DNA from: Marsupella aquatica
Lineage: Eukaryota > Plantae > Marchantiophyta
Assembly (NCBI GenBank): GCA_973895155.1
Contig: OZ316892.1
Span: 572,917-636,916, forward strand
Direction of reading: 5' to 3'
Length of the DNA stretch: 64,000 nucleotides
In this document: positions 5,527 through 46,280 of the stretch, piece by piece
How positions within the stretch are numbered: the first letter of the stretch is position 1
How the letters are laid out: each line of letters starts with the position of its first letter
Made by a program: the position numbers and the translations under genes
The notes under the pieces: generated by a model
The model's input: only the letters and a program-made list of their open reading frames with translations
Database searches by the model: none
What the model was told of the DNA's origin: nothing

Positions 5527-5544
5527 CCCCTCCATCTAGCGCCA
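5527..5544 (-). promoter_or_regulatory. Primer-binding site, probably tRNA-Asn(GUU)
   Basis: TGGCGCTAGATGGAGGGG lies 4 nt after the LTR's terminal CA. It matches the complement of the plant tRNA-Asn 3' end (recalled as CCCCTCCTTCTAGCG-CCA) with one mismatch. Confidence 0.75.
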
Positions 5545-8500: not shown

Positions 8501-10205
8501 TTTCTCCAGTAGTTTCAGCAGACTCTGCATGCCTGGTTGCTGCATCGGCAAGTCTTCCTTCCTGGGCCTAAACACCTGCTCGATCGTAGGACTAACAGGT
8601 GGTGGAGGCTTCTCAGCCAACGGCCTCGGTGTTGGAGCTTCCTCGGGTGCCCTTACCTGCAGGGGAAGTACCGGGGCAAAAGTCTGACCTCTGGCATACC
8701 GGCACAACAGCGGCATGTGATAGCCAAGCCGCGACACGCTCCCCATGCCGATTACCTGCTGCTCCTCCTTTAAGATCTTCTTCAATTGGTTGAGGAGGTA
8801 CCCGTTGTAGTCCCGGCTTGGGTCTGGCCTTTCTGCCAGATAGACCTGTGCCTTGCCGATCTCTGCCCTCGGCAAGTTACAATGCATGGTCACCTGCAAG
8901 AAGTCGATCATCTCTCCTATGTGCGGGTTGGTGCAGGTGTTCCGGAAGAAGCCATTCTTCGTTGATGGCCCGGGGAACGACCGGAACTCCTTGTCAGGCA
9001 AGGTCTTCCTGGTATCAACTTTGGTCTTATTGCCCATCGGCAAGCCAAACACTTCGGCAATTACCTTGGGAGTAAGATAGAAATCCTTCCCATATATCCT
9101 CGTGCAATTGGTCTCGGGTTCCCATGACCCCACGAATTCTAATAGGTCTGACTCCGGTACCTCCGGCTTCAGCCATGGTAATCTTACAAAGGCCTCCAAG
9201 CCGGATCCGGCCATGAAGCCTTGGTACTTCTTGGTCTGCATGGCCGTAAAGCATGCATCCTCCTCCCGTGCAAAATGTAGTTGCACCTCCACCGGTAGGG
9301 TTGCCGCCCAGCCCTTCCAGGTGTCATCCCTGGTTGGAATGGCCTTGATGGGATCGACCTCCTCCTCTTCGGCTTCTCCCTGCCTCCTGCTCTGCTGCTC
9401 GGCTGGCTTCTTTGGTGCCGCCGACCTCGTTCTTTTTGCCGGGGTGGCTTCATCATTGACGGCTCCCTTCCTCTTCATCTCTGCTGCCGTGGAGGTTTCT
9501 CCTAGCACCGTTGCCCGGGTCCACCTTTCCGTGCTACCCTTTAATTCCCAGTGTATGTCGTTGCAATTCTTGATGGCCTCTCGGATGCCGACGACGCTGT
9601 CTTTGCAAAACAGAAGATCGTCGAGTTGATTGGAAGTAGGCGTCCACAGGAACTCGTCCTTGATGAGTTCGCCTCCTAAGAAAGCCGTCTTCTGCAGCTC
9701 CCACAATCGAGCGAGCTCCTGCCGTTCTCGAGCTGCCCTTTCTGACTCCTCGTCCTCGTAAGTCTTGATGTACTCAGTTGCCCGTTCGAACAGGCATCCC
9801 CAGAAATGTGCCGCTTGATTGACGTTGCTCATACCCTCCTTAGGTCGATCGTCGGTATCTACTCTCTCCCCGAGTGCTTGCCTAAGCAGCTGACAGTAGT
9901 TGGCCTCCCGTAGTCGTCTGCCTAGTTCATGCTCGCAAATGAGCCACCATCTCCTGCAAGCGCTCCTTACCCCTCTCCTCTGCCGGTCCTTCTTCCCGTT
10001 GATCCTTCCTAGCCGCCGACGCTTAACGCGCCCTAACCCTAATTGGGTTTTCACCCTCAGCCTTACCTCCGGCCTCTACCCGGGTTCCATGGTTGCCCCT
10101 AATTGTTTATATTTTCCTTGTTTTGTCACTATACTAAGGTGTTCCTAGGGTGCCTTCCTGCTTTACCCACTTAACCGGTCGAGTGATTCCTGTCTAGGCA
10201 TCACA
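5549..10205 (-). repeat. Giant LTR copy 1 (4657 bp), 5' LTR of the gypsy element
   Basis: Ends TGTGATGC...GCACCACA, directly followed by the PBS and gag. Colinear with the copies at 24395, 31871 and 41378. Confidence 0.92.
6461..10090 (-). pseudogene. LTR-encoded ORF, copy 1 (two CAG>TAG stops relative to copy 2)
   Basis: ORFs 7112-10054 and 6461-7051 are nearly identical to the 1207-aa ORF at 24510-28133. Confidence 0.9.
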
Positions 10206-21808: not shown

Positions 21809-24394
21809 TAGTTTCTTGGACTTACATACATGTATATATATATGTCAGTTTATTTTACATGTTTACATGAGAATGATGTTGTTCAGCAGTGCATGTGTTG
21901 ATGAGATTAATTAATTGATGTTGTATGATAGAATCAATATGTAACGCCTGATATTGGGGTAATATCACGAGCTATGCGACAATACCTTGTTGAGGCCATG
22001 GTGGCCAACCGTGGGCATGAACCGCAAAGGCAAGAGGATGGGGTACGACATGATGGTGATGATCCTATCCAAGACCATCTTGATGAGGAGAGGGCCATGG
22101 ATGAGCTCATGGACCAATTCTATGATGATCACGATGACATTGGTTTGGAGGACATTGGTTCAACCCATGAAAGGACTAGTCATCCACATCCTTCTAGGGG
22201 GTCCCAAGACAAGCAATGGGAGGAGGCGCAACGTCATGCCCGTACTCGCATATTCGAGGGGAGTAGGTTATCTCGGCTCTCATCAATAATGTTGTTGCTC
22301 AACTTGCGGCAAAGACATGGGGCAAGCAATCTACTTTTGGATGATGTTTTCCGTACCTTGCATGATCATATTTTGCCAGTAGGCAATGCATTGCCAGCCT
22401 CTTGGAAAGAGGCTAAACAGGTGTTGAGGTCCATTGGCCTGAAGTATGAGGTGATACATGCATGTGTGGATGATTGCATTCTTTTTAGGGGTGAGCATGA
22501 AAATGCCACTACATGTCCTAAATGTCAGAAGCCACGGTACCGTGATGACATGTTGACGGGGAAGGTACCGCAAAAGGTTATGAGGTACTTTCCTCTTATC
22601 CCTCGATTGCGACATCAATTCCGATGTGCAGAGTTGGCTGAGATGATGGTATGGCACTCACAAAATCGTTCTGATATGGTTGTACCCTCTAGTGCCATGC
22701 GGATGATGGTTGACTCTCCTGCCAATCGATTTGTAGAGGATAGATGGGGAGAGTTCAAAATTGACCCACGACATGTTCGACTAGGCTTGGCAGCAGACGG
22801 TATCAGCCCTTTTGCATTGACAGGAAAAGCCAAACCATATTTGGTGTGGCCAGTAGTGTTGACAAACTACAACATCCCTCCTTGGATGGCCATGAAGAAA
22901 GGTCACCTACTAGTCTCCATGATTATTCCGGGTCCTAAGCAAGTTAAAAAGATTGATGTGTACTTGCAGCCATTGATTGATGAGTTGATACAACTGTGGA
23001 GAGGAGTGGATTCTTGTGATGGACGTCACAACACAGGAGGTTTATCCCGCGTATTTACTCTAAAGGCCATCCTTATGTGGACCATGCATGATTTACCAGG
23101 TATGGTAAACCCTTATTTCCTCTAGTACCTAAACCTTGTATTTAATTGCAATTATGCAGATTTTTGCCTTGATGAACCTTATTTTATGAATGTGTTTTCT
23201 ATGCACTGGGCAGGGTTTGGATATGTTTCTGGATTGCAAACATCAGGCTATCGAGCTTGCTCTACATGTGGACCCGATTTGGAGGGGGTGGCCAGGCCCA
23301 AGTCAAGTACTTTGCAAAAAATTCTTTACATTGGTCATACTAAATATCTTCCACCAGACCATCCTTGGAGGAGTGATCCATTCCTTTATGATACTGATGA
23401 GGGCCAACCTGATATTCGTCCTCAACCTCAGCGGAAGGATCCAGCATATTGGAGAGAGGTATGGGGGAGAGTTCAGGATCCGAGTGATCCATTACCATTA
23501 TTCAGATGTGGCATGACCCGTTTGTTTGCATTGTCACAATTGCCATATTGGTTAGATATGCCCATTAATCACTTGTTAGACCCTATGCACATTGAGGGGA
23601 ATGTGGGGAAATCATTGATTCGCAATCTATATGGGGAGAAAAATAACAATTGGAGAGAAAGTTGTGAGGAGATGGGGATGCATGGTCTTTTGGGTTTTTG
23701 GCCATCTTTGGACCCCCTTGGTGCTCCCCCTAGCATCCATCCTCCTTGGGTTTTGACAAGGGCAGAGCGCATTGAGTTTCGCAGACGTATTGGGTTGATG
23801 AGGTTTCCCACAGGTTATGGTACCAATCTTCGGAAGGCATTTGGGGGGGAGGATTCTCCAAAATGGCCATCTTTCTTGAAGACACATGATTATCATCGGT
23901 TGCTTGAACATGTTCTTCCAGTTGCTATTATTGGATTGGGTAGTGAGGAACTTCGTGATGCCCTTTGGTCATTGGGTAAGCTCTTAAGATGGGTATGTCA
24001 AAAGGAGGTACAAGAGGATGACATTGCTGCTATGGAGATATTTGGAGTAGAGGTTGTCTGCAAGTTGGAGAAGGCACTCCCTCCCTCATTCTTTGATGGT
24101 CAGGTTCATTTCCTCATACATTTAGTGCGCGAGGTTGCAATTGCAGGCCCAGTACATTGTCGATGGATGTATTGGGTAGAGCGTTATATGGGGGTGATGA
24201 AGTCATATGTCTTTAATCGCGCTAGGGTGGAAGGTAGCATTGCGGAGTGTCATCTTGGAGCAGAGAGTATGTTTTACTGTACAAACATAGTTGCCACACT
24301 AGATCCTAGTGCTCCTAGGGGATGGATAGATGAGGCGGCACGAGAGGCTGACTACGAGGATGATAGACTCACTGGGGCATCTGGAGAGCGTCTC

Positions 24395-27300
24395 TGTGAT
24401 GCCTAGACAGGAATCACTCGGCCGGTTAAGTGGGTAAAGCAGGAAGGCACCCTAGGAACACCTTAGTATAGGGACAAAACAAGGAAAATATAAACAATTA
24501 GGGGCAACCATGGAACCCGGGCAGAGGCCGGAGGTAAGGCTGAGGGTGAAAACCCGATTAGGGTTAGGGCGCGTTAAGCGTCGGCGGCTAGGAAGGATCA
24601 ACGGGAAGAAGGACCGGCAGAGGAGAGGGGTAAGGAGCGCTTGCAGGAGATGGTGGCTCATTTGCGAGCACGAACTAGGCAGACGACTACGGGAGGCCAA
24701 CTACTGTCAGTTGCTTAGGCAAGCACTCGGGGAGAGAATAGATACCGACGATCGACCTAAGGAGGGTATGAGCAATGTCAATCAAGCGGCACATTTCTGG
24801 GGATGCCTGTTCGAACGGGCAACTGAGTACATCAAGACTTACGAGGACGAGGAGTCAGAAAGGGCAGCTCGAGAACGGCAGGAGCTCGCTCGATTGTGGG
24901 AGCTGCAGAAGACGGCTTTCTTAGGAGGCGAACTCATCAAGGACGAGTTCCTGTGGACGCCTACTTCCAATCAACTCGACGATCTTCTGTTTTGCAAAGA
25001 CAGCGTCGTCGGCATCCGAGAGGCCATCAAGAACTGCAACGACATACACTGGGAATTAAAGGGTAGCACGAAAAGGTGGACCCAGGCAACGGTGCTAGGA
25101 GAAACCTCCACGGCAGCAGAGATGAAGAGGAAGGGGGCCGTCAACGATGAAGCCACCCCGGCAAAAAGAACGAGGTCGGTGGCACCAAAGAGGCCAGCCG
25201 AGCAGCAGAGCAGGAGGCAGGGAGAAGCCGAAGAGGAGGAGGTCGATCCCATCAAGGCCATTCCAACCAGGGATGACACCTGGAAGGGCTGGGCGGCAAC
25301 CCTACCGGTGGAGGTGCAACTACATTTTGCACGGGAGGAGGATGCATGCTTTACGGCCATGCAGACCAAGAAGTACCAAGGCTTCATGGCCGGATCCGGC
25401 TTGGAGGCCTTTGTAAGATTACCATGGCTGAAGCCGGAGGTACCGGAGTCAGACCTATTAGAATTCGTGGGGTCATGGGAACCCGAGACCAATTGCACGA
25501 GGATATATGGGAAGGATTTCTATCTTACTCCCAAGGTAATTGCCGAAGTGTTTGGCTTGCCGATAGGCAATAAGACCAAAGTTGATACCAGGAAGACCCT
25601 GCCTGACAAGGAGTTCCGGTCGTTCCCCGGGCCATCAACGAAGAATGGCTTCTTCCGGAACACCTGCACCAACCCGCACATAGGAGAGATGATCGACTTC
25701 TTGCGGGTGACCATGCATTGTAACTTGCCGAGGGCAGAGATCGGCAAGGCACAGGTCTATCTGGCAGAAAGGCCAGACCCAAGCCGGGACTACAACGGGT
25801 ACCTCCTCAACCAATTGAAGAAGATCTTAAAGGAGGAGCAGCAGGTAATCGGCATGGGGAGCGTGTTGCAGCTTGGCTATCACATGCCGCTGTTGTGCCG
25901 GTATGCCAGAGGTCAGACTTTTGCCCCGGTACTTCCCCTGCAGGTAAGGGCACCCGAGGAAGCTCCAACGCCGAGGCCGTTGGCTGAGAAGCCTCAACCA
26001 CCTGTTAGTCCTACGATCGAGCAGGTGTTTAGGCCCAGGAAGGAAGACTTGCCGATGCAGCAACCAGGCATGCAGAGTCTGCTGAAACTACTGGAGAAAG
26101 AAAAGAAATCGGCATCGGCAACAACAACGGCAACGGCAACAATGCAGGACACTACTACAGAGGTAGGCCTACACCGGCTCACAAGAGAAAACCCCTTTGC
26201 TGGAGACAAGGAGAGAATCAGGCCGGAATCCAAGCCAGGTGTTCGAATGTACGTGGGAACCTCAAGCTCCGAATCTGAGGCAGAATTGCCTGAAGCTCCT
26301 ACCGACGAAGAGGAGAGGGAGAAGCCGGACATCCAAGAGGTAGAGGAGGCAGTGGAGGACTGCAGCCATGATAATTCCGGCTATGGGTCGGACCATCACG
26401 TTCCAGGAGTAAGGACCTGTGGCCGGTTTGTCCCCACACTTCCAAGGGTAGTGCGAGGGGACCCCAACCAGCAGAGTAGCCCTGAGTCTCCCCCACCAGA
26501 TGTTGCTCCCCCGAGCTTCGACGGCATAAAACAGACGGTGCAGGAATTTCAGGAGCGAATCAAGCAGGAGGAAGAGGCCGCCCTGGCTAAGGAAAAGGAT
26601 TTACCAGGAGGAGATTGGCCGGAGGACATCAGGCGGCTAGCCAAAAAAGGAAGCAAACCTCTAGCCACGATTGAAGAGATCCGCAGGACGGCTTGGGAGC
26701 AGAGGCCACAATGGGCGATGCCGATCACTTCTACTTACTCCACCTACGCTAAGAATAGAGCCATGGAGTATGGTGAGATGTGTGGGGAACTTGCGCTCGG
26801 CATCTTTGGAGAGGAGTTGGAGGTAGGACCCTTTTTCCATAGGGAGCAGTTGGAGAAGCACCAATTAGAAGAAGCGGTGGCTTTAGAGAGAAGCAAGAAG
26901 GACGAGGTCATTCGGCGGCTTAGGAGGATGGAAGCCGAGATTGAAGATCTAAGGGCGGCCAAGAAAGCCCAAGATGAACTGCGGATTAAACGACATGAGC
27001 TGAACATCATGCAGGGGCAGTTGGACATCGCGCAGGCTGATAATCAGAATATCAAGGATAAACTAACTCAGACGCAGGGAGAGTTGGCCGACACGATCAA
27101 AGAGAGGGAGAAGTGGAAGCAAGAGCTGAAGAATACAGAGGAGGCCCACATAACAGCCAACAGCCGGGCCATGGCGGAGACCCAAAGAAAGGAATGGGCG
27201 TTGAAAGGGGAGCTCGAGAAAATCCGCGGAGCCCTTGAGCAGAAGGAGGTCGAGTTAGGGAAATCCTATCAAGGGATTATGGCGCTGCAGCAGGAGCTTG

Positions 27301-29054
27301 CGTCCCTGACGGCCAGCTTCAAGGCCGACCTAAGGGAGAAGGACGAGATGCTCGAACAGACTTACGCCAAGATGAACCAGATGGAGTCTGTCATCATTGC
27401 AGAGCTCGACAAGGAGCTAAGAGCAAACCAGGAGGAGAGGGCTACCTTGAAGAAGGAATTGGAGGAAGCCCACAGGGAGCAGGAGGAGGCCAAAAACGAG
27501 CTGGAGGGGGCACGTAAGGACCTGGATGAAACCCAAGAGGAGTTGGAGGAAATCACGAGGAAGATGGAGAACCTACAGCGGCGGGCCGACAACCAAACAG
27601 AGCGGCTGAAGAAACAAGCCGCAGTATTTAAATGCTTAGCTGCAGCAGGTCCATCTCCTGTTGGGACAAACCAGTTACCAGGGGTGGTAATTGCCGAAGG
27701 ACAAGCCGCGCCAACTGCACCAGTGCCAGAAGTAAGTGGGAAGGGGAAGGGACCAGCTGCCGAGCCACCAACAAAGAAGAAGCGGAAACCTTCAGGGTCA
27801 AGGAGTAATACGACTTCACAGGCCGTGGTGATCAAGGAGGTAGACCCAGCACCAACCCCAGACAGGGTCACGGCTAAGGATCCAACTACCCTAGGGGAAG
27901 GGGAGGCCGAAGCCGAGGGAGTGGCTGAAGCCGAAGCCGTGGGAGTGGCTGAGGCCAAAGCCGTGGGTATTGCCGAGGCCGGTGTCGAGGCTGAAGCCGA
28001 AGGTGGACCCAGTCAGGCCGATGGAGAGTTGACTCAGTCAAGGGCAGGTAATCTGTCAGAGAATGAACCTACGGCAGTGGCTGAGGAGGAAGTGTTGGGG
28101 GCGTCCATTGAGGATCCACCACCGGTGTCGTGACGGTGCAAGGGCGCCGTTCCTTTTAGGGAGGGCGGACGTGGAGGGAGGAGGCGTGAGTGGGCAGGGC
28201 GGGCGCGGATCTCCACGTTTAGGATTAGGATCAGAACCAGGAGCGGCCCTGACACTTAGCTTAGTGGGATTGCGGTCCCACTGGTAGGAGCAACACTTGT
28301 GCTCCTGCCTTGCTGTACATGGGTAGATTCGGGCAAGTAGATTACTGTTAGGTAGATTAGGCTTACGATGCAAAGAATGGCGGATCCACTACCAGGATAA
28401 GTACCTGGGCAGCGGGGAGCTCAGGGCCTCTTCTTTAGCAAGTTTTTAGTTTGCACCAGCCGGGCTGGGATCAAGTAGTACGAGAAGCTCTCGGTTAGTC
28501 ATACAGTGACCCTTGTGTATATTCATGTTTCCTCATGCCTAAGAGCTGAATAGAGTTGGCCTCACGGCTTAGTTCGCAGAACTTGTGTATGAGATGTACT
28601 GTTTGTATGGCAAGTGCATGGTATGACTCAGTCAGAATGAGTCATTTTGCTATTTGTGTGTCGCATTAACTTGTGTGAAGAGTGCCCACATCAACAGAAG
28701 GAAGGAAAGTAAGCAGGGGAGTGAGAGTTGGATGTGTCGAGCTGAGAGAGGTCTTAGCGGCTTAACCAAGCCTATTGGGGATCATTCCGGCGGCGGAATC
28801 CAAACATACCTAACAAAACGGAGGGGAAGACAGGGGAAGACAGGGGAAGGCCTATATTAGGCCGGCTACGTATCTCATGACCCGATGAAGGATCTGTCCA
28901 GTATATGTGTGTAAAATGTTAATAGTAGTAGTAGAAGGTTAGCAGCGTCCCATGCCGCTAAGCCGCGGAAACGGCCTCGCCAAGCACGAAACCTGCGGGA
29001 ATCGGCTTGAGCTGGGGGGTTTCTTGGGTTTAGGGAGCCATGGGACGCACCACA
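24395..29054 (+). mobile_element. Giant solo LTR, copy 2 (4660 bp)
   Basis: TGTGATGC...GCACCACA with TSD GTCTC (24390-24394, 29055-29059). Confidence 0.95.
24510..28133 (+). CDS. Intact 1207-aa LTR-encoded protein: plant-mobile-domain/Athila-ORF-like segment, long coiled coil, basic NLS-like motif
   Basis: Uninterrupted 3.6-kb ORF conserved in four copies. LLEFVGSWEPETNCTRIYGKDFYLTPKVIAEVFGLP resembles PMD-type motifs by eye. E/K/Q/L-rich heptad region and TKKKRK. The true start may be the ATG at 24768. Confidence 0.8.
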   Translation: MEPGQRPEVRLRVKTRLGLGRVKRRRLGRINGKKDRQRRGVRSACRRWWLICEHELGRRLREANYCQLLRQALGERIDTDDRPKEGMSNVNQAAHFWGCLFERATEYIKTYEDEESERAARERQELARLWELQKTAFLGGELIKDEFLWTPTSNQLDDLLFCKDSVVGIREAIKNCNDIHWELKGSTKRWTQATVLGETSTAAEMKRKGAVNDEATPAKRTRSVAPKRPAEQQSRRQGEAEEEEVDPIKAIPTRDDTWKGWAATLPVEVQLHFAREEDACFTAMQTKKYQGFMAGSGLEAFVRLPWLKPEVPESDLLEFVGSWEPETNCTRIYGKDFYLTPKVIAEVFGLPIGNKTKVDTRKTLPDKEFRSFPGPSTKNGFFRNTCTNPHIGEMIDFLRVTMHCNLPRAEIGKAQVYLAERPDPSRDYNGYLLNQLKKILKEEQQVIGMGSVLQLGYHMPLLCRYARGQTFAPVLPLQVRAPEEAPTPRPLAEKPQPPVSPTIEQVFRPRKEDLPMQQPGMQSLLKLLEKEKKSASATTTATATMQDTTTEVGLHRLTRENPFAGDKERIRPESKPGVRMYVGTSSSESEAELPEAPTDEEEREKPDIQEVEEAVEDCSHDNSGYGSDHHVPGVRTCGRFVPTLPRVVRGDPNQQSSPESPPPDVAPPSFDGIKQTVQEFQERIKQEEEAALAKEKDLPGGDWPEDIRRLAKKGSKPLATIEEIRRTAWEQRPQWAMPITSTYSTYAKNRAMEYGEMCGELALGIFGEELEVGPFFHREQLEKHQLEEAVALERSKKDEVIRRLRRMEAEIEDLRAAKKAQDELRIKRHELNIMQGQLDIAQADNQNIKDKLTQTQGELADTIKEREKWKQELKNTEEAHITANSRAMAETQRKEWALKGELEKIRGALEQKEVELGKSYQGIMALQQELASLTASFKADLREKDEMLEQTYAKMNQMESVIIAELDKELRANQEERATLKKELEEAHREQEEAKNELEGARKDLDETQEELEEITRKMENLQRRADNQTERLKKQAAVFKCLAAAGPSPVGTNQLPGVVIAEGQAAPTAPVPEVSGKGKGPAAEPPTKKKRKPSGSRSNTTSQAVVIKEVDPAPTPDRVTAKDPTTLGEGEAEAEGVAEAEAVGVAEAKAVGIAEAGVEAEAEGGPSQADGELTQSRAGNLSENEPTAVAEEEVLGASIEDPPPVS

Positions 29055-31870
29055 GTCTCATAGGCTCAGCAGAGCGTTTACAGCTCATAACATTTATGTT
29101 GTATAACTCACCCGAGGTTGTCGGGGAGCGGACAACATTTTATGAGGAGGAGAAGCAAAACAGTCGACGCCCACAGTTATTTCCCAAGTTTCACCCATAC
29201 ATGAAGGAGAAGTTGTTAGAAGTGGATGCCCTGGTGGGTACCGGGGAGAGTGTATTACACTACCCAAACGTGACAGATAAACTTCGTACCTTGGTTCATG
29301 GTCCACTACTTATAGTCACGACTCGGACTGCCATGTGGTCAAAGGGGAGACATTTTTGTGTGGAACGACTTGATGAGAAGAGGGCAGCTACACAGGATTG
29401 TGGGGTGATGGGTTGGTTCACCCAAGATTCCCAGAGTAGCATGTCAGACATGAATCCCATTCGCTCCACCGTGGCCCATTATGGGAAGATTGAGGAGATC
29501 CTAACAGTGAAGTACCATGCACATACTACTTTGGAGGAAGTGGTATTCAAGTGCAAATGGTTCAAGATGAATCTTGTAGGCCACAATCGTACTTGTGAAG
29601 ATGATGCATGCGGTTTTACTCGTTTGAAGACATCCGCAAATAGTGTCATCAGTTCCAACTGGAGGTCCTCAGATCCCTTTGCCTTCCCACATCACCTTGA
29701 GCAATGCTTTTACCTACCCTATATCCCAATGACCCCGAGTGGTCCATTGTCATACCGTATATTCCCAGATCACGGTCCATAGTCCAAGAGAGACCCAACG
29801 TAGTTGTAGTGGAAGATAGAGACATACCCCCCACGAGTTAGTATAAATTGTAGACCCCACCATCTTCATGTATATTTTTACCGGCACTATCTTTTTATCG
29901 GCATTCTACGATTTTTCTCATTGTCCATAATTTCATGCAGTATACATATCTATTGCGTAAAGTATGCCCCATGTCTGAATCCATTAATTCCATGCAACCT
30001 ATACATTGTAAAACACTAAAGTCCCATATGTCCCATTCAAATACCATCGGAAACATATCGGACACACATCAGTACTGCCAAAGCAAAAAACCCCTTCCCA
30101 TCCTCAAAGTATCGGATTTTCCGATACTATAACAATCGGAAGCCACTATCCGATACTCCACAGATTGGACGCTTAAGCCCGCAGCCGAGGAGGGGTTCGA
30201 TAGAAATTTCAACGGATAGTAACTGATACCTCAGCCTTCGCAAATGATTTCCGTTGTAGCTAGTATCGCAAAAATATGTCCGATACCATTTGTATCGGTA
30301 AATGTCCGAAACCAAACCTATCGGAATTAGCTTTCGATACTATTATTATCGGACGTCTGAAAAACATGTCGGCTCTCAATTTGCGATACAGGATGTTTCG
30401 GACATTGTCTGATATGATGGGTATTGGATAAAGTTTTTGATACAAAACATATCGGATAATAATGTCCGATTTTGGTAGTATCGGAAGTTCCGTAGCTGGG
30501 AGTATCGGAAGTTTTCCGTTGTGTTTAGTATCGGGAGCGTTGAGAAATGCGTGTTTTTAGTATCGGAAAAGTGCCTAAAATGTACTAGTGTATCGACGTT
30601 GGGATGATGGCCGCAATTTCTCAAAAGACCGAAGTGGGTTTAAGTTTGACAATAGGTGGGTTGTTCCTCATAGTCCATATTTGAGCATGAGATTCAATGC
30701 CCATATTAATGTGGAGATTTGTTGCTCTATTAAAGCAATCAAGTATTTATACAAGTACTGTTATAAAGGGCATGATAAGGCAACGGTTGAGGTGGAGCAA
30801 CGAGATGAAGTGAAGGAGCACTTAGATGCCAGATATGTGTTTGCTGCTGAGGGAGTATGGCGCATTAACCAGTTTTAAATGTCTGAGAGTACTACTTCGG
30901 TGCAACGGCTGCAAGTTCATTGTGAGGGGGAACAATCTATAATGTTCAATGAGGATTCTAACATCAGTGATGTGGTTCAACAAGAATCTCATAGGGACAC
31001 AACTCTCACAGGGTGGTTCAGAGCTAACACTTTGCATGAACAGGCAAAACAACTTCTCTACAGCAATTTCCCCCATGAGTTTGTATGGGATACGTCCTCC
31101 TGTGCATGGAACCCACGAAGAAGAGGGTTTAGCATTGGTAGGATGTATTTTGTGCCACCAGCCGCGGGTGAACGGTACTATTTGAGGGCGCTTCTTCTTC
31201 ACATCAAAGGTGCAACATCATTCATCGACCTTTGCACTTTTGAGGGCACTGTATACCCCATCTTTCAAGCAGCGGCTCTTGCTCGGGGTTTGTATGAGAA
31301 CGATGAGGAGTGGGATAGATGCCTTCAAGAAGCGGCAAGCATGCACACCGGTGCGCAAATACGACAACTATTTATTACAATATTGTTGTTTGGAGGTGTT
31401 GCCAAACCATGCGACCTATGGGCACAATATGCATCCAATTTGAGTGATGATTGTAGGTATCGTTTGCAATTGATGGGCTTCTTAGATTCTACAGAGCAGC
31501 AACAACAAAGCTTTGCTCTACATTTGATGGATGAGGCTTTGAAAAGTGTGGATAAAACCTTGTTGGAGTTTGGTCTTCCGGAACCAGGTATGGATTTTTT
31601 CCAAGAGGAAGAAAATAGAAACCGGTTGATAAGAGAGGAGACATGTTATCCAATGGATGTACTTCTACAACAACTTGCAGAGCAAGAGCCGTTGTTGAAC
31701 GAGGGTCAAAGGGCAATGTACACTGCAATACTTGCAGCCGTGAGGGCTCGAGATGGAGCGACATTCTTTATTGATGGACCAGAGGGGACGGGCAAAACAT
31801 TTGTGGAGAATGTTCTACTTCGGAGAGTCCGTGTAGATGGGGATGTCGCATTGGCCGTAGCTTCCTCGGG

Positions 31871-34800
31871 TGTGGTGCGTCCCATGGCTCCCTAAACCCA
31901 AGAAACCCCCCGGCTCAAGCCGATTCCCGCAGGTTTCGTGCTTGGCGAGGCCGTTTCCGCGGCTTAGCGGCATGGGACGCTGCTAACCTTCTACTACTAC
32001 TATTAACATTTTACACACATATACTGGACAGATCCTTCATCGGGTCATGAGATACGTAGCCGGCCTAATCTAGGCCTTCCCCTGTCTTCCCCTCCGTCTT
32101 GTTAGGTATGTTTGGATTCCGCCGCCGGAATGATCCCCAATAGGCTTGGTTAAGCCGCTAAGACCTCTCTCAGCTCGACACATCCAACTCTCACTCCCCT
32201 GCTTACTTTCCTTCCTTTTGGTTGATGTGGGCACTCTTCACACAAGTTAATGCGACACACAAATAGCAAAATGACTCATTCTGACTGAGTCATACCATGC
32301 ACTTGCCATACAAACAGTACATCTCATACACAAGTTCTGCGAACTAAGCCGTGAGGCCAACTCTATTCAGCTCTTAGGCATGAGGAAACATGAATATACA
32401 CAAGGGTCACTGTATGACTAACCGAGAGTTTCTCGTACTACTTGATCCCAGCCCGGCTGGTGCAAACTAAAAACTTGCTAAAGAAGAGGCCATGAGCTCC
32501 CCGCTGCCCAGGTACTTATCCTGGTAGTGGATCCGCCATTCTTTGCATCGTAAGCCTAATCTACCTAACAGTAATCTACTTGCCCGAATCTACCCATGTA
32601 CAGCAAGGCAGGAGCACAAGTGTTGCTCCTACCAGTGGGACCGCAATCCCACTAAGCTAAGTGTCAGGGCCGCTCCTGGTTCTGATCCTAATCCTAAACG
32701 TGGAGATCCGCGCCCGCCCTGCCCACTCACGCCTCCTCCCTCCACGTCCGCCCTCCCTAAAAGGAACGGCGCCCTTGCACCGTCACGACACCGGTGGTGG
32801 ATCCTTAATGGACGCCCCCAATGCTTCCTCCTCAGCCACTGCCGTAGGCTCATTCCCTGACAGATTACCTGCCCTTGACTGAGTCAATTCTCCCTCGGCC
32901 TGACTGGGTCCACCATCGGCGTCGGCATCGGCTTGGGAATCGGTTACGGCCTCAGCCTCGGCTACGGTCTCCCCGGCCTGCTCAAGAGGCGGATCTGGAA
33001 TACCGGCCTCATTACTGAGTAGTTCGGCTTGGGCCGCACCACCCCCACCTGTGATGATAGCGGGATCCATTGCCGTATTCATGCCGGAGGATGGTGCTGG
33101 TTCTACCTCTTTGGTCACCACGGCTTGTGGAGTCAGATTACTCCTTGACCCTGAAGGTTTCCGCTTTTTCTTCTTTTCTGGTTCGGCAGCTGGTCCCTTC
33201 CCCTTCCCACTTACTTCCGGCACTGGTGCAGTTGGCGCGGCTTTTTCTTTGGCCAGTACCACTCCTGGTAACTTGGTTGCCCCAATTGGAGTTGGGCCTG
33301 ATGAAGACAAGCACTTAAATACTGCGGCTTGTTTCTTCAGCCGCTCCGTTTGGTTGTCGGCCCGCCGCTGGAGGTTCTCCATCTTCCTCGTGATTTCCTC
33401 CAACTCCTCCTGGGTCTCATCCAGGTCCTTGCGTGCCTCCTCTAGTTCCTTCTGGGCTTCCTCCCGTTCTTGTTTCAAGGTAGTCCTCTCCTCCTGGGTT
33501 GCTCTTAGCTCCTTGTCGAGCTCTACAATGATGACAGACTCCATCTGGTTCATCTTGGCGTAAGTCTGTTCGAGCATCTCGTCCTTCTCCCTTAGGTCGG
33601 CCTTGAAGCTGGCCGTCAGGGACGCAAGCTCCTGCTGCAGCGCCATAATCCCTTGATAGGATTTCCCTAACTCGGCCTCCTTCTGCTCAAGGGCTCCGCG
33701 GATTTTCTCGAGCTCCCCCTTCAACGCCCATTCCTTTCTTTGGGTCTCCGCCATGGCCCGGCTGTTGGCTGTTATGTGGGCCTCCTCTGTATTCTTCAGC
33801 TCTTGCTTCCATTTCTCCCTCTCTTTGATCGTGTCGGCCAACTCTCCCTGTGTCTGAGTCAGTTTATCCTTGATATTCTGATTATCAGCCTGCGCGGTGT
33901 CCAACTGCCCCTGCATGATGTTCAGCTCATGTCGTTTAATCCGCAGTTCATCTTGGGCTTTCTTGGCCGCCCTTAGATCTTCAATCTCGGCTTCCATCCT
34001 CCTAAGCCGCCGAATGACCTCGTCCTTCTTGCTTCTCTCTAAAGCCACCGCTTCTTCTAATTGATGCTTCTCCAACTGCTCCCTATGGAAAAAGGGTCCT
34101 ACCTCCAACTCCTCTCCAAAGATGCCGAGCGCAAGTTCCCCACACATCTCACCATACTCCATGGCTCTATTCTTAGCGTAGGTGGAGTAAGTAGAAGTGA
34201 TCGGCATCGCCCATCGCGGCCTCTGCTCCCAAGCCGTCTTGCGGATCTCTTCAATCGTGGCTAGAGGTTTGCTTCCTTTTTTGGCTAGCCGGCTGATGTC
34301 CTCCGACCAATCTCCTCCTGGTAAATCCTTTTCCCTAGCCAGGGCTGCCTCGCTTGATTCGCTCCTGAAATTCCTGCACCGTCTGTTTTATGTCGTCGAA
34401 GCTCGGGGGAGCAACATCTGGTGGGGGAGACTCAGGGCTACTCTGCTGGTTGGGGTCCCCTCGCACTACCCTTGGAAGTGTGGGGACAAACCGGCCACAG
34501 GTCCTTACTCCTGGGACGTGATGGTCCGACCCATAGCCGGAATTATCATGGCTGCAGTCCTCCACTGCCTCCTCTACTTCTTGGCCGTCCGGCTTCTCCC
34601 TCTCCTCTTCGTCGGTAGGAGCTTCAGGCAATTCTGCCTCAGATTCGGAGCTTCAGATTCCCACATACATTCGAACACCTGGCTTGGATTCAGGCCTGAT
34701 TCTCTCCTTGTCTCCAGCAAAGGGGTTTTCTCTTGTGAGCCGGTGTAGGCCTACCTCTGTAGTAGTGTCCTGCATTGTTGCCGTTGCCGTTGTTGTTGCC

Positions 34801-36525
34801 GATGCTGATTTCTTTTCTTTCTCCAGTAGTTTCAGCAGACTCTGCATGCCTGGTTGCTGCATCGGCAAGTCCTCCTTCCTGGGCCTAAACACCTGCTCGA
34901 TCGTAGGGCTAACAGGTGGTTGAGGCTTCTCAGCCAACGGCCTCGGCGTTGGAGCTTCCTCGGGTGCCCTTACCTGCAGGGGAAGTACCGGGGCAAAAGT
35001 CTGACCTCTGGCATACCGGCACAACAGCGGCATGTGATAGCCAAGCCGCGACACGCTCCCCATGCCGATTACCTGCTGCTCCTCCTTTAAGATCTTCTTC
35101 AATTGGTTGAGGAGGTATCCGTTGTAGTCCCGGCTTGGGTCTGGCCTTTCTGCCAGATAGACCTGTGCCTTGCCGATCTCTGCCCTCGGCAAGTTACAAT
35201 GCATGGTCACCCGCAAGAAGTCGATCATCTCTCCTATGTGCGGGTTGGTGCAGGTGTTCCGGAAGAAGCCATTCTTCGTTGATGGCCCGGGGAACGACCG
35301 GAACTCCTTGTCAGGCAAGGTCTTCCTGGTATCAACTTTGGTCTTATTGCCTATCGGCAAGCCAAACACTTCGGCAATTACCTTGGGAGTAAGATAGAAA
35401 TCCTTCCCATATATCCTCGTGCAATTGGTCTCGGGTTCCCATGACCCCACGAATTCTAATAGGTCTGACTCCGGTACCTCCGGCTTCAGCCATGGTAATC
35501 TTACAAAGGCCTCTAAGCCGGATCCGGCCATGAAGCCTTGGTACTTCTTGGTCTGCATGGCCGTGAAGCATGCATCCTCCTCCCGTGCAAAATGTAGTTG
35601 CACCTCCACCGGTAGGGTTGCCGCCCAGCCCTTCCAGGTGTCATCCCTGGTTGGAATGGCCTTGATGGGATCGACCTCCTCCTCTTCGGCTTCTCCCTGC
35701 CTCCTGCTCTGCTGCTCAGCTGGCTTCTTTGGTGCCGCCGACCTCGTTCTTTTTGTCGGGGTGGCTTCATCGTTGACGGCTCCCTTCCTCTTCATCTCTG
35801 TTGCCGTGGAGGTTTCTCCTAGCACCATTGCCTGGGTCCACCTTTCCGTGCTACCCTTTAATTCCCAGTGTATGTCGTTGCAGTTCTTGATGGCCTCTCG
35901 GATGCCGACGACGCTGTCTTTGCAAAACAGAAGATCGTCGAGTTGATTGGAAGTAGGCGTCCACAGGAACTCGTCCTTGATGAGTTCGCCTCCTAAGAAA
36001 GCCGTCTTCTGCAGCTCCCACAATCGAGCGAGCTCCTGCCGTTCTCGAGCTGCCCTTTCTGATTCCTCGTCCTCGTAAGTCTTGATGTACTAAGTTGCCC
36101 GTTCGAATAGGCATCCCCAGAAATGTGCCACTTGATTGACGTTGCTCATACCCTCCTTAGGTCGATCGTCGGTATCTACTCTCTCCCCGAGTGCTTGCCT
36201 AAGCAACTAACAGTAGTTGGCCTCCCGTAGTCGTCTACCTAGTTCGTGCTCGCAAATGAGCCACCATCTCCTGCAAGCGCTCCTTACCCCTCTCCTCTGC
36301 CGGTCCTTCTTCCCGTTGATCCTTCCTAGCCGCCGATGCTTAACGCGCCCTAACCCTAATCGAGTTTTCACCCTCAGCGTCCTTACCTCCGGCCTCGGCC
36401 CGGGTTCCATGGTTGCCCCTAATGGTTTATATTTTCCTTGTTTTGTCCCTATACTAAGGTGTTCCTAGGGTGCCTTCCTGCTTTACCCACTTAACTGGCC
36501 GAGTGATTCCTGTCTAGGCATCACA
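31871..36525 (-). mobile_element. Giant solo LTR, copy 3 (4655 bp), ORF disrupted
   Basis: Same termini, TSD TCGGG (31866-31870, 36526-36530). Interrupts the Helitron helicase at VASSG|IAS. Confidence 0.95.
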
Positions 36526-37849
36526 TCGGGTATTGCAAGTCTTTTGTTAGATGGAGGTCGCACCGCACACTCAAGATTCAAGCTACCATTGAAACCAATC
36601 TCGACATCGACATGCAGCATCCAAAAACAATCTGACCTTGCTGGATTATTGCGGAGGGCAACTTTTATTTTGTGGGATGAAGCACCCATGATCCATCGGC
36701 ATGGAGTGGAGGCATTGGATAGAACTTTACGCGACATACGAGATAATGACCGAATCTTTGGAGGGGTTGTAGTTGTATTTGCAGGTGATTTTTGACAAGT
36801 GCTTCCAGTGAAGGCAAGGGCAAGTCGTCCAGAGATTGTGGGGTCATGTTTGAAGAAGTCTTATGTGTGGAATAGTATACGGACTTTGAAGCTAACTGAA
36901 AATATGCGGGCAAGAGGAACTAACGCATCTCCTGAATTTGGTAATGTTACATTTGTGGAGTGGCTACTACAATTGGGAGATGATAAACTCCCAAAACGAG
37001 GGCCTTCAAATAATCTTATTACTTGCCCTGAGTCTATGGTGGTGGATGGAGGACGTGTGGAATCATTGATTCAGGCAATATACCCGACTCTTGCTAATGT
37101 GGACGATAGGTTCTTAAGTGAGAGAACTATTCTCGCGCCGACAAATGACAAGGCACTAAAAATTAACGACTCTATCTTAGAAGGACTTCCTGGGGAATCA
37201 AGTGAGTTTTTTAGCATTGATCGTCCAGATCAGCTCGAAGGGGAAAATTTCTACCCTACGGAGTTCTTGAATACACTCACACCGAGTGGTCTGCCGCCCC
37301 ATAAGTTGGTATTGAAGGTTGGATGCCCTATCATTTTACTTAGGAATATAGATCACTCTTTGGGGTTGTGTAATGGTACTCGGTTAATTGTGAGAGCAAT
37401 GAATCGTCGTGTCATTGAGGCACGTGTTCTTGCAGGAAAATATGCAGGAACCCTTACATTTATCCCACGGATACCGTTGACTTCTGACGAGTCACTTCCT
37501 TTCTTATTACGTAGGGTCCAATTTCCAATTCGAGTGGCATATGCAATGACCATAAACAAGGCTCAAGGTCAGGTCAGACTTTAGAACATGTAAGGTTGCA
37601 GCTTTCAAAGCCTGTATTTAGTCATGGACAGTTGTATGTAGCATTCTCAAGGGCAACATCACCTACAACTATCAAGGTTTTACTTTCAGATTCCGAGGAG
37701 GGTCAAGCAAAGTTGACAAAAAATGTTGTATATGATGAGGTTCTTTATTGAACACTTGAATAAATATTGTATCACTTTTGTATTAATCTCTTTGACTTTT
37801 TGCCTGAATTATATGTTTGCAATGCACAACCATGTTTGCCTCCCCTCAA

Positions 37850-41300: not shown

Positions 41301-44300
41301 TTCGTTGCTTCTTTCATCATGACCGCATGTCGTTTGGATGTCTCTTCCTGAGACCAAGGATTTCCCTGAGTGGTAGCTGTGGTGCGTCCCATGGCTCCCT
41401 AAACCCAAGAAACCCCCCCAGCGCAAGCCGATTCCCGCAGGTTTCGCGCTTGGCGAGGCCGTTTCTGTGGCTTAGCGGCATGGGACGCTGCTAACCTCCT
41501 TCTACTACTACTATTAACATTTTACACACATATATTGGACAGATCCTTCATCGGGTCATGAGATACGTAGCCGGCCTAATCTAGGCCTTTCCTTGTCTTC
41601 CCCTCCGTCTTGTTAGGTATGTTTGGATTCCGCCGCTGGAATGATCCCCAATAGGCTTGGTTAAGCCGCTAAGACCTCTCTCAGCTCGACACATCCAACT
41701 CTCACTCCCCTGCTTACTTTCCTTCCTCTGTTAGTTGATGTGGGCACTCTTCACACAAGTTAATGCGACACACAAATAGCAAAATGACTCCTTCTGACTG
41801 AGTCATACCATGCACTTGTCATACAAACAGTACATCTCATACACAAGCATTTAAATACTGCGGCTTGTTTCTTCAGCCACTCTGTTTGGTTGTCGGCCCG
41901 CCGCTGTAGGTTCTCCATCTTCCTCGTGATTTCCTCCAACTCCTCTTGGGTCTCATCCAGGTCCTTACGTGCCTCCTCCAGCTCGTTTTTGGCTTCCTCC
42001 AATTCCCTGTGGGCTTCCTCCAATTCCTTCTTGGTGGTAGCCCTCTCCTCCTGGGTTGCTCTTAGCTCCTTGTCGAGCTCCGCTACGACCTCAGACTCCA
42101 TGTTATTCATCTTGGCATAAGTCTGGTCGAGCTGGGCGTCCTTCTCCCGCAGGTCGGCCTTGAAGCTGGCCGTTAGGGACGCAAGCTCCTGCTGTAGCGC
42201 AATAATCCCTTGATAGGATTTCCCTAACTCGGCCTCCTTCTGCTCAAGGGTTCTACGGATGACCTCGAGCTCTTCCTTCAACGCCCTCTCCCTTCTCTAA
42301 GTCTCCATCGTGACCCGGTTGTTGACTGCTATATGGGCCTCCTCTGCGTCTCTCAGCTCCTTCTTCCATTTCTCCCTATCCTTGATTGCGTCGGCCAATT
42401 CTCCCTGGGTCTGAGTCAGTTTATCCTTGATAGTCTGATTATCAGCCTGCGCGGTGTCCAACTGCCCCTGCATGATGTTCAGCTCATGCCGCTTAATCCG
42501 CAGTTCATCCTAGGCTTTCTTGGCCGCCCTTAGATCTTCAATCTCGGCTTCCATCCTCCTAAGCCGCCGGATGACCTCGTCCTTCTTGCTTCTCTCTAAA
42601 GCCACCGCTTCTTCTAATTGGTGCTTCTCCAACTGCTCCCTATGGAAAAAGGGTCCTACCTCCAACTCCTCCCCAAAGATGCCAAGCGCAAGTTCCCCAC
42701 ATATCTCACCATACTCCATGGCTCTATTCTTAGCGTAGGTGGAGTAAGTAGAAGTGATCGGCATCGCCCAACGCGGCCTCTGCTCCCAAGCCGTCTTGCG
42801 GACCTCTTCAATCGTGGCTAGAGGTTTGCTTCCTTTTTTGGCTAGCCGCCTGATGTCCTCCGGCCAATCTCCTCCTGGAAAATCCTTTTCCCTAGCCAGG
42901 GCTGCCTCCTCTGCTTCCCTAAGTCGCTCCTGAAATTCCTGTGCCGTCTGCTTTATGCCGTCAAAGCTCGGGGGAGCAACATCTGGTGGGGGAGACTCGG
43001 GGCTACTCTGCTGGTTGGGGTCCCCTCGAACTACCCTTGGAAGTGTGGGGATAAACCGGCCACAGGTCCTTACTCCTGGAACGTGATGGTCCGACCCATA
43101 GCCGGAGTTATCATGGCTGCAGTCCTCCACTGCCTCCTCCACCTCTTGGACTTCCGGCTTCTCCCTCTCCTCTTCGTCGGTAGGAGCTTCAGGCAATTCT
43201 GCCTCAGATTCAGAGCTTGAGACTCCCACGTACATTCGAACACCCGGCTTGGATTCTGGCCTGATTCTCTCCTATTTCCGGTAAAGGGGTTTTCCCTTCT
43301 AAGTCTGCTTAGGTTGACCTCTGGGGCAGTGTCCTGTATTGGTGCCGCTGCCGAAGCTGGTGCCAGTGCCGTCTTTTCCTTCTCCAGCATCTTCAGCAGA
43401 TTCTGCATGCTTGGTTGCTGCATTGGCAAGTCTTCCTTCCTTGGCCTAAACACCTGCTCAATCGTAGGGCTAACAGGTGGTTGAGGCTTCTCTGCTACCG
43501 GCCTCGGTGCTGGAGCTTCCTCGGGTGCCCTTACCTGCAGGGGAAGTACTGGGGCAAAGGTCTGACCTCTGGCATACCGGCACAACAGCGGCATGTGATA
43601 GCCAAGCCGCGACACGCTCCCCACGCCGATTACCTGCTGCTCCTCCTTTAAGATCTTCTTCAATTGGTTGAGGAGGTACCCGTTGTAGTCCCGGCTTGGG
43701 TCTGGCCTCTCTGCCAGATAGACCTGTGCCTTGTCGATCTCTGCCCTCGGCAAGTTACAATGCATGGTCACCCGCAAGAAGTCGATCATCTCTCCTATGT
43801 GCGTGTTGGTGCAGGTGTTCCGGAAGAAGCCATTCTTCATTGATGGCCCGGGGAACGACCAGAACTCCTTGTCAGGCAAGGTCTTCCTGGTATCAACTTT
43901 GGTCTTATTGCCTATCGGCAAGCCAAACACTTTGGCAATCACCTTGGGAGTAAGATAGAAATCCTTCCCATATATCCTCATGGAATTGGTCTCGGGTTCC
44001 CATGACCCCACGAATTCTAATAGGTCTGAATCCGGCACCTCCAGCTTCAGCCATGGTAATCTTACAAAGGCCTCTAAGCCGGATCCGGCCTTGAAGCCTT
44101 GGTACTTCTTGGTCTGCATGGCCGTAAAGCATGCATCCTCCTCTCGTGCAAAATGTAGTTGCACCTCCTCTTGTAGGGTTGCCGCCCAGCCCTTCCAGGT
44201 GTCATCCCTGGTTGGAATGGCATTGATGGGATCGTCCTCCTCTTCGGCTTCTCCCTGCCTCCTACTCTGCTGCTCGGCTGGCTTCTTTGGTACCGCCGAC

Positions 44301-46280
44301 CTCGTTCTTTTTGCCGAGGTGGCTTCATCGTTGACGGCTCACTTCCTCTTCATTTCGGCTGCCGTGGAGGTTTCTCCTAGCACGGTTGCCTTTGTCCACC
44401 CCTCCGTGCTACCCTTCAACTCCCAGTGTATGTTATTGCAGTGTTTGATGGCTTCTCGGATGCCGACGACTCTATCTTCGCAAAATAGAAGATCGTCGAG
44501 CTGATTGGAAGTAGGAGTCCACAAGAACTCGGCCTTGATGAGTTTGCCTCCTAAGAAAGCCGTCTTTTGCAGCTCCCACAATCGAGCGAGCTCCTGCCGT
44601 TCTCGAGTTGTCCTTTCTGATTCTTCGTCCTTGTAAGTCTTGATGTACTCAGTTGCCCGTTCGAACAGGCATCCCCAGAAATGTGCCGCTTGATTGACGT
44701 TGCTCATACCCTCCTTAGGTCAATCGTCGGTATCTACTCTCTCCCCGAGTGCTTGCCTAAGCAGCTGACAGTAGTTGGCCTCTCGTAGTCGTCTGCCTAG
44801 TTCGTGCTCGCAAATGAGCCACCATTCCCTGCAAGCGCTCCTTACCCCTCTCCTCTTCCGGTCCTTCCTCCCGTTGATCCTTCCTAGCCGCCGACGCTTA
44901 GCGCGCCCTAACCCTAATCTTGTTTTCACCCCCAGCGTCCTTACCTCCGGCCTCGGTCCGGGTTCCATAGTCACCCCTAATTGTTTATATTTTCCTTGTT
45001 TTGTCCCTATACTAAGGTGTTTCTAGGGTGTACTCCTACTTTACCCACTTAACTGGCCGAGTGATTCCTGGCTAGGCATCACAGTAGCCGACTCCATGTC
45101 CATCTTGAATTGTCGAGAATAGGATTTAATCTTATTCTCGCATAAGATATACATAAGTGCTCCTTGAGGCATTTTCTTGGAATACCACGATCCTTTTCGA
45201 GTCTTCTGCATCACCTGCCCAAACTTCTTGAAGTTTGCCCCATCGATGATTGATTTGTAGTATTCTAGATCGTTGGACAAAATCCTCTTAATTTGGTCTG
45301 CATCAAGTATCCAGGAAGGTTCCACCACGGCCTATCCAAGTCTACAAAAGAATTGTTCAGTCAAAAGCGCCAGGCGCTAGTAAAAACTACACTATAAAAG
45401 ATAAGGATAGGTGAAATTCAAAGAGAGACTTACTGGTTCACAGTATGCATAGCCGCCTCAATCTCAATCAAAGATCCCTTTTCACCCTTGAAGATAGTAC
45501 ATTGCACACGCGGGTGATACTTGCTATCTTCCGGATTTTCTTTTGTAACGATCAACCATGCGTAAAGTCGATGGTTACCGTCAAAAACGTAAAACATCTT
45601 ATCTTATAACACCATGAAGTCTGGATCGGCCGCACATTCAGCTTCTAACTTCTCATTCTTGGCCACCCACACCGGGTCTCAGGTTGCTCGAATTTCTGGA
45701 GTACAGGTCTGGACATTCCCATTCGAATCTGCCGGCTGGACATAGAACAACATTCCGATTTTTGAGTTGTATCCTGTGCTACGAAAAGAGTCCTTCAACT
45801 TTTCAATTGAAGGACTTCCCTTCTGTAAGGTGCGGACAACTTCCAAGTGAACCAAGCGGCATTGGAATCCTTGGGGGGTCTTTGTCGTGCCCTCGAAAAT
45901 CCTTGCCAAACACCATAACGTGCTTGGAGATAATGTCGGACATCGTCAGTGACATTTCTCCTCGATCTTCCACAACGTATGTGTTGAGATCGTCCATCTT
46001 CGCTCTCCTGCTCTTCAGAAATGTGACTACCGTGACTGTTTCGGGATCTTGGGATGCTGTAGACCGTGTCACACGACGACTGTCTACAGTTCCAGAAAAC
46101 GAGCACTCGGATGTCTGGGAATGGATCTGCTCTCTCTACCCGTTAGCACTATACCCATGCGAGGTGGTGGGGAGGGTCCATGTTTTGCATACACGAAGTG
46201 CTTCACGATCGTGATGAGTACCTCATTCGTACCGTACTTCTTCTAGAGAATTCTTTCACGAAGAACCTCCAAAACGGAAC
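38324..46280 (-). pseudogene. Spliced gene: ParB/Srx-like N-terminal domain + beta-class N4/N6 DNA methyltransferase-like C-terminal domain; disrupted by stops, a frameshift and solo LTR copy 4
   Basis: IEKLKDSFRSTGY...MFYVFDGNHRLYAW (DGNHR at 45568-45582). VGFIYLPTG...FFRAMDPFLSDDGMLAI, then RLPVGFMQTVLELFTIPKDIVIDWTVGSGSTFIAGDYSGRFVIGLE (39052-39078). Frame-preserving GT-AG introns at 45433-45342, 40299-40142 and 39437-39319. Start codon uncertain. Confidence 0.72.
41378..45083 (-). mobile_element. Giant solo LTR, copy 4 (3706 bp; about 0.95-kb internal deletion near 41847; most diverged)
   Basis: Same termini, TSD GTAGC (41373-41377, 45084-45088). Confidence 0.95.

Follow-up and report, generated by a model that had tools for sequence, protein, structure and literature searches.

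Accessory coding sequence inside or overlapping the U3 region of a long terminal repeat (LTR) is familiar from vertebrate retroviruses, with MMTV sag (about 320 codons) and with HIV nef and foamy-virus bel/bet, which merely overlap the LTR. In plants, extra open reading frames (ORFs) are carried by non-chromovirus Ty3 retrotransposons of the OTA group, namely a PMD (PF10536) in Ogre, ORF-1 (PF03078) in Athila and TRP28 (PF04195) in Retand (PMC6317226, PMC7264820, PMC11963269). The role of such ORFs is still open (PMC7264820, PMC11963269). Gypsy PMD-A has been described from angiosperms, and its ancestry relative to the host PMD has been called 'fully open' (Ikeda et al. 2017, PMC5418596). Among Mutator-like DNA transposons, proteins that undo silencing in a sequence-specific manner are established: VANC recognises a short motif and causes loss of methylation (PMC5735166). 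Modelling links the VANC domain structurally to the PMD of MAIN and MAIL1, and coiled-coil oligomers have been predicted for both VANC and the Athila domain (PMC13547354, 10.1101/2024.09.27.615353). Here we describe a 64,000-nucleotide stretch of the liverwort Marsupella aquatica (contig OZ316892.1, positions 572,917 to 636,916 of the forward strand; 'the window'), in which a repeat unit that we identify as the LTR of a Ty3 retrotransposon contains a 1207-codon ORF with a conserved domain of predicted VANC-like fold. The retroviral accessory sequences are much shorter than this ORF and encode unrelated proteins.

The element resembles the OTA elements in being a non-chromovirus with 5-bp target-site duplications (TSDs), in its LTR size (up to about 5 kb in that group) and in its conserved extra ORF, and the OTA extra ORFs probably share the modelled fold superfamily. 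However, the OTA ORFs have been described internally, 5' of gag or 3' of pol, whereas here the LTR encloses the whole gene, which persists in solo LTRs; moreover, the ORF has no Pfam match and the pol groups with Riccia, apart from the angiosperm matches. A literature search of titles and abstract openings, partial in its coverage, turned up no plant LTR described as containing an entire gene. With VANC21 of VANDAL21, an Arabidopsis Mutator-like DNA transposon, the ORF shares that it encodes a transposon-borne accessory protein with a predicted fold alignable over 209 residues, and the layout of a globular domain plus a predicted coiled coil (PMC13547354) and variable tandem-repeat regions (PMC5735166) is common to both. 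It differs from VANC21 in belonging to a Ty3 LTR rather than a VANDAL element, in its 8-12% identity and in that no clear tandem target array was found; VANC is described as dicot-specific (PMC13547354), whereas this ORF stands outside the dicots. Because the host element differs and its function is as yet putative, the protein is not a VANC by membership, but by analogy it plausibly works like one. The host PMD-C proteins MAIN, MAIL1 and MAIL2, which have a VANC-linked structure, are found with chromatin at DNA motifs and counteract silencing by Polycomb (10.1101/2024.09.27.615353, PMC5418596), are encoded by angiosperm genes, and the likeness of our ORF protein to them is indirect, through VANC21.

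Results

Four copies of the 4.66-kb unit are present in the window, 92-98% alike in pairwise self-BLAST comparison (Table 1). All four start with TGTGATG and end with CACCACA, and three are flanked by perfect 5-bp TSDs, the chance of a single such match being about 1 in 1000; copy 1 has no TSD. Beyond the LTR end of copy 1 come four T and TGGCGCTAG..., and gag begins 70 bp on. This primer binding site (PBS)-like sequence is one that we take to be of the tRNA-Asn type. When the unit and one TSD are removed, the host frames of copy 2 (a CACTA gene, entered between DUF4218 and DUF4216 by Pfam) and of copy 3 (a Helitron PIF1 gene) run on uninterrupted, and the unoccupied CACTA site of copy 2 is present in contigs of two public runs, X3 and X2. 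Three of the 15 read joints listed fall exactly at the unit ends of copy 1, 5549 or 10205. A terminal inverted repeat is confined to 6 of 7 bp, with nothing longer. Given these ends, TSDs, PBS-like site, clean insertions and empty site, the unit is an LTR, as a sequence-only reading of this DNA had proposed, and it is very probable that the whole gene sits within a true LTR; the retrotransposon to which it belongs is a Ty3 element outside the chromoviruses. In public runs X1-X14, which stand under four organism labels, the unit was matched at 60-79% of sampled words, pointing to a family common to close species or labels.

Some 78% of the unit (3624 of 4660 bp) is occupied by the single sense ORF, which is open only in copy 2, as that reading had noted. 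In the frame of copy 2, copy 1 has two stops, copy 3 three stops and an 8-bp deletion, and copy 4 four stops, a 1-bp deletion and the large internal deletion. The idea that every solo LTR leaves a full gene behind thus holds structurally, but two of the three solo copies here are broken. The TATAAA that it pointed out at 24489 is common to all four copies and would place the cap site downstream of ATG 24510. Since three of the nine stops also lie within the first 86 codons (p 0.057), the alternative start at ATG 24768, preferred by the sequence-only reading, is weakly favoured. Around its conserved domain, the protein consists of low-complexity linkers, a stretch of some 260 residues that resembles a coiled coil and is predicted to oligomerise as one (a Pfam match to the ATG16 coiled coil is weak and below cut-off), basic clusters resembling nuclear localization signals near residues 206-222 and 1088-1094 (by eye) and a fast-changing repeat tail. 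No transmembrane segment was found in it (maximum Kyte-Doolittle 19-mer 1.0). Across 27795-27995 (+), copy 3 differs from copy 2 at 67 of 200 sites, with far fewer differences in adjacent windows, which may reflect a swapped or a fast-evolving repeat tail. An antisense frame of 182 codons (24971-25519) partly overlaps the conserved domain region, 25251-25950.

Purifying selection has shaped the ORF, acting on the replicating lineage. From M87 on, the ratio of nonsynonymous to synonymous substitution rates (dN/dS) is 0.29-0.30 in the three pairs that include copy 4 and 0.40-0.43 in the other pairs, while neutral simulations at the distance of copy 4 with the same transition bias gave a median of 0.69 and a minimum of 0.49 among 200; the comparison among copies that the earlier reading had called for places the copy 4 pairs below these neutral values. 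Small indels in the ORF also mostly spare the frame, seven out of nine doing so (p 0.008). The stops and frameshifts of three copies are ordinary post-insertion decay. Selection on solo copy 2 after its insertion was considered and found unsupported, since a young intact copy is unremarkable when its sisters hold two to six lesions. Private C-to-T changes affect 1.65% of CG, 1.34% of CHG and 0.23% of CHH sites, and this six- to sevenfold excess at CG and CHG suggests that the LTR copies were likely methylated. In the pairs with copy 4, synonymous divergence (dS) falls to 0.006-0.058 in region 25251-25950, against 0.20-0.24 in its flanks, and the same region has the highest contig depth across the unit; extra constraint at the nucleotide level or recombination between subfamilies might account for the low dS.

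What is new in this protein is the domain at residues 255-478, with its homologues in Calypogeia and its predicted VANC-like fold. An exhaustive homologue search returned 21 representative matches (best E 6e-49), of which 19 have the domain and two were dropped as spurious (P0128, Ig-like; P0142, HA-domain); P0139 was removed from the alignment. Named proteins of Calypogeia fissa account for four of the 19 (CAM6090539.1, CAM6082161.1, CAM6122807.1 and CAM6101870.1; E 5e-6 to 7e-4). Word-based searches of the ORF gave no match but carry little weight, with a coverage of just 663-2113 and 1379-3935 amino acids. For related loci, a metagenome scan yielded one 1-kb contig and a viral scan no match. 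The model of the domain from the 21-row alignment reached a pLDDT of 81.5 and a pTM of 0.80. Among 48,161 PDB chains, the best match to it was DNA-bound VANC21 (PDB 9LNK/9LNJ; Z 8.6, root-mean-square deviation (rmsd) 4.1, 209 of 224 residues, 8% identity), with the sister VANC21 entry at Z 8.4 and the second-best PDB chain at Z 2.3; a viral fold library gave no match to the model at E <= 0.001. In favour of the fold, a language-model atlas pointed to Transposase_32 (0.89) and ATHILA (0.87), and again for a Calypogeia homologue (0.83-0.84), although scores below 0.9 count as leads only. The link to PMD proteins made in the sequence-only reading therefore stands at the level of the fold, where the model matches VANC21, but not at that of sequence, where the Pfam search found no match to PF10536, to Athila domains or to Transposase_32. 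On balance, the domain probably belongs to the VANC/PMD-fold superfamily, as far as the model goes.

Table 1. Features of the repeat unit and the adjoining element (positions in the window; c1-c4, LTR copies 1-4).
Feature	Position	Strand	Remarks
gag (CCHC knuckle) - protease-like - RNase H - integrase	1..5479	-	stops in gag; most of reverse transcriptase missing; cut by window edge
PBS-like site, TGG-starting	5527..5544	-	4 nt past LTR end of c1
LTR copy 1	5549..10205	-	5' LTR of defective full element; ORF with 2 stops
5' TSD of c2	24390..24394	+	GTCTC
LTR copy 2	24395..29054	+	solo LTR, 4660 bp, TG..CA ends; inside CACTA TnpD-like gene
TATAAA	24489..24494	+	sole canonical TATA box in LTR; in all copies; candidate ORF promoter
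1207-codon ORF	24510..28133	+	alternative start ATG 24768 (M87); no transmembrane stretch
Globular conserved domain, residues 255-478	25272..25943	+	predicted VANC/PMD-like fold; homologues in Calypogeia fissa
E/K/Q/R/L/A-rich stretch, residues ~781-1045	26850..27644	+	coiled-coil-like by composition
24-bp in-frame tandem repeats	27903..27981	+	fast-changing C-terminal tail
Non-coding LTR tail	28134..29054	+	likely poly(A) signals and gag-pol promoter
U/G-rich block	~28500-28690	+	3'-end-like
Purine run, then TG	28696-28721	+	26 nt, 24 purines; would mark older 333-bp LTR
10-bp tandem repeats	28822-28849	+	2-3 copies
CCT(A/G)TATT	28851	+	
3' TSD of c2	29055..29059	+	GTCTC
LTR copy 3	31871..36525	-	solo; TSD CCCGA; inside Helitron PIF1 helicase gene; ORF broken
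LTR copy 4	41378..45083	-	solo; TSD GCTAC; most diverged; 947-bp internal deletion; ORF broken

The element next to copy 1 agrees with the order gag-PR-RT-RH-INT of Ty3/gypsy elements, with RNase H ahead of integrase by Pfam. Among the matches listed, its top named pol relatives come from two liverworts, Riccia sorocarpa and Calypogeia fissa, the latter with 55-64% over partial matches. In a pol tree of the query and 76 of 120 listed matches, built without REXdb references and without the 44 matches that were too short, among them all three from Calypogeia, the element groups with two Riccia proteins within a clade of 24 rows (SH-aLRT 100), separate from the angiosperm matches. The Tat clade (TatI-III, Ogre, Retand) is marked by an archaeal RNase H domain in the polyprotein; Pfam gave no match of this kind for the 120 listed relatives or for the visible polyprotein, in which reverse transcriptase is deleted and the part after integrase lies beyond the window. 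The Phygy and Selgy lineages are short elements with 4-bp TSDs that, in the lineage table of Neumann et al. (PMC6317226), have no extra ORF; both assignments are ruled out by the 5-bp TSDs and the large extra ORF found here. Athila is listed with 5-bp TSDs and a polyprotein without an extra domain (PMC6317226), and the present element has both features. It is thus Athila-like by its features, without phylogenetic placement in Athila.

The partner repeat of copy 1 would lie beyond the left edge of the window, which cuts integrase near its end; most pol relatives extend about 17-50 residues past that point. Summed contig depth, which by the tool's own warning is no copy number, is higher for the whole unit, ORF included, than for gag-pol, by factors of 3.3 (run X1), 3.5 (X2) and 2.5 (X3), the three runs for which the ratio was computed. 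Loose contig ends 5' of the LTR start are purine-rich, as expected from a polypurine tract (PPT), in two of the three runs that have ends there. In X3, two contigs agree at 0.83 and end GAAGCGGGGAGCGA, one of them with a depth of 72.8, and in X6 a single contig ends AAGGGGGAT. The PPT-like 13-mer from the reads is absent from the window with up to two mismatches allowed.

The non-coding tail of the LTR differs at only 5 of 912 sites between copies 2 and 1 and at 6 of 911 between copies 2 and 3, a conservation above that of synonymous sites, as cis-elements would show. The purine run within it is a weak marker, because it was spotted post hoc and the strand is purine-rich throughout. An Rfam scan of the LTR gave no match. 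Telomere-like TTAGG(G) motifs occur in the non-coding LTR at 24557-24570, 28218-28230 and 29028-29036.

Discussion

We propose, with a probability of about one half, that this Ty3 LTR holds a whole accessory gene of VANC/PMD fold whose product is likely a DNA-binding factor that would counter host silencing of the element. A sense accessory gene with its own promoter would once have stood between pol and the 3' LTR and would have entered U3 once plus-strand priming shifted upstream of that promoter. The order of TATA box, ORF, U/G-rich block and purine run plus TG would suit such a capture. The TATA box at 24489 would drive an ORF transcript whose end would fall in the U/G-rich block, and the start of the genomic RNA would lie in the final 300-900 bp of the LTR. 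A full element would then have the gene twice, and one copy would remain after every recombination between LTRs. By analogy with VANC, the protein would bind the element and oppose its silencing; that it acts in anti-silencing or transactivation, and not in another role, is about an even call.

Several observations weigh against this proposal. Neither the ORF nor the 21 alignment members have a Pfam match above cut-off, PF10536, PF03078 (ATHILA) and PF20167 (Transposase_32) included, and PDB sequence searches with the ORF gave nothing meaningful. Only one of five models reached a pLDDT of 80, the other four lying at 59-69, and a replicate model of the Calypogeia homologue P0138, made from a single sequence, was unusable (pLDDT 43). 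Foldseek also ranked VANC21 first (TM 0.41), at an E of 0.73 that is not significant. Besides the 8-12% identity and the rmsd of 4.1, the Z of 8.6 barely exceeds the 7-8 that the tool treats as usual when nothing matches clearly, and helices make up most of the domain. The dN/dS of 0.43 between copies 2 and 1 lies within the neutral range (2.5% quantile 0.32) and alone is not significant. In the reads, agreement is just 0.54 among the four loose ends of X2 and 0.57 for a second X3 pair, values to be expected if random flanks were mixed. The downstream TATA-like site is not kept, having G in copies 3 and 4. A k-mer enrichment analysis of the non-coding LTR parts found no clear tandem target array of the VANC type, and TTAGG, at 14 occurrences against 3.7 expected, is borderline after multiple testing, as it does no more than reach the 95th percentile of top k-mers from shuffled sequence. 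Finally, promotion of silencing is also described for angiosperm PMD proteins that have this fold (PMC5418596), so the direction of the effect does not follow from the fold.

The gene might alternatively lie in R/U5, with the TATA box at 24489 starting the genomic RNA after a short U3, the ORF as first cistron and gag-pol expressed by splicing or from a second start. The LTR has its one canonical and fully conserved TATA box just 95 bp in from its 5' end, donor-like GTAAG sites follow at 24533 and 24629, and forward 5' extra ORFs exist in Ogre and TatII (PMC6317226). Yet such a layout requires a minus-strand strong-stop DNA of 4.5 kb, transcription would have to pass through the U/G-rich block of the 5' LTR, which resembles a 3' end, and the tail, strongly conserved and with tandem repeats of variable copy number, would be typical of a promoter region. 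We regard the R/U5 layout as unlikely and lean slightly towards U3 as the position of the gene. A different doubt concerns function rather than place. An LTR-resident gene without a chromatin role could serve particle assembly, nuclear import, integration targeting or, as an 'env-like' gene, cell-to-cell movement, and the likeness to VANC would then be an old common fold or a chance helical match. The long coiled-coil-like stretch, the weak fold statistics and the plant additional ORFs of unknown function (PMC7264820) are in keeping with this, but the protein has no transmembrane segment by the Kyte-Doolittle measure above, the VANC21 match spans the whole domain far above every other chain, and separate atlas leads point to Transposase_32 and ATHILA; we consider it doubtful.

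It is very improbable that the unit is no LTR and that an independent element, either a DNA transposon or a non-autonomous element with one gene, landed before gag by chance. The second LTR is outside the window and three of the four copies do stand alone, but in copy 1 a PBS-like TGG lies 4 nt past the CA end, there is no TSD and gag begins 70 bp on; moreover, the unit has no terminal inverted repeats past those 6 of 7 bp, no transposase domain by Pfam and no internal pair of short LTRs. A mini-element with short internal LTRs was likewise rejected, because no repeat connects the two ends of the unit. Hardly credible, too, is an ORF that is a neutral passenger or a frame open by composition. 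Three of four copies are broken and the protein is mostly low-complexity, but a dN/dS of 0.3, frame-keeping indels and a domain kept in 19 other proteins refute neutrality for the history of the family, although it may hold for solo copies after insertion.

If the proposal of an LTR-borne accessory gene holds, the LTR could further be a self-contained anti-silencing cassette, a single repeat that combines a VANC-fold gene with its promoter, poly(A) site and target motifs; this is a speculative and rather improbable extension that we put forward tentatively. Solo-LTR formation, normally a removal route for the host, would in that case leave behind genes that de-silence the family in trans. A retrotransposon protein of VANC/PMD fold would exist in liverworts, the use of the fold by transposons would predate flowering plants, and Ty3 elements would be a possible source of both PMD host genes and VANC. 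A 2026 atlas derives VANC from host MAIN (PMC13547354), and a liverwort Ty3 homologue bears on this derivation as well as on the ancestry of Gypsy PMD-A. An intact and selected retrotransposon gene with a predicted VANC fold would offer a direct test of the role of extra ORFs. Being inside the LTR, the gene would persist when the rest of the element is deleted by solo-LTR formation. Since annotation tools treat LTRs as non-coding, LTR-resident genes may be missed or annotated as host genes.

Other elements in the window

The nest that received the LTR copies comprises two Helitron segments (10848-13603 and 30879-37584, +) and one CACTA element (21932-29782, +). Broken ORFs at 47083-50397 (+), with Cys/His clusters and transposase-like stretches and without a Pfam match, resemble a Mutator-like element by eye. 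The broken element that received copy 4 contains a fragment of a bacterial-type amino-methyltransferase: the ORF fragment 38752-39357 (-), together with 39540-41398 (-), matches the C-terminal part of the Pfam model N6_N4_Mtase above cut-off (E 1e-8). It is presumably reminiscent of the Marchantia N4-methylcytosine (4mC) methyltransferase.

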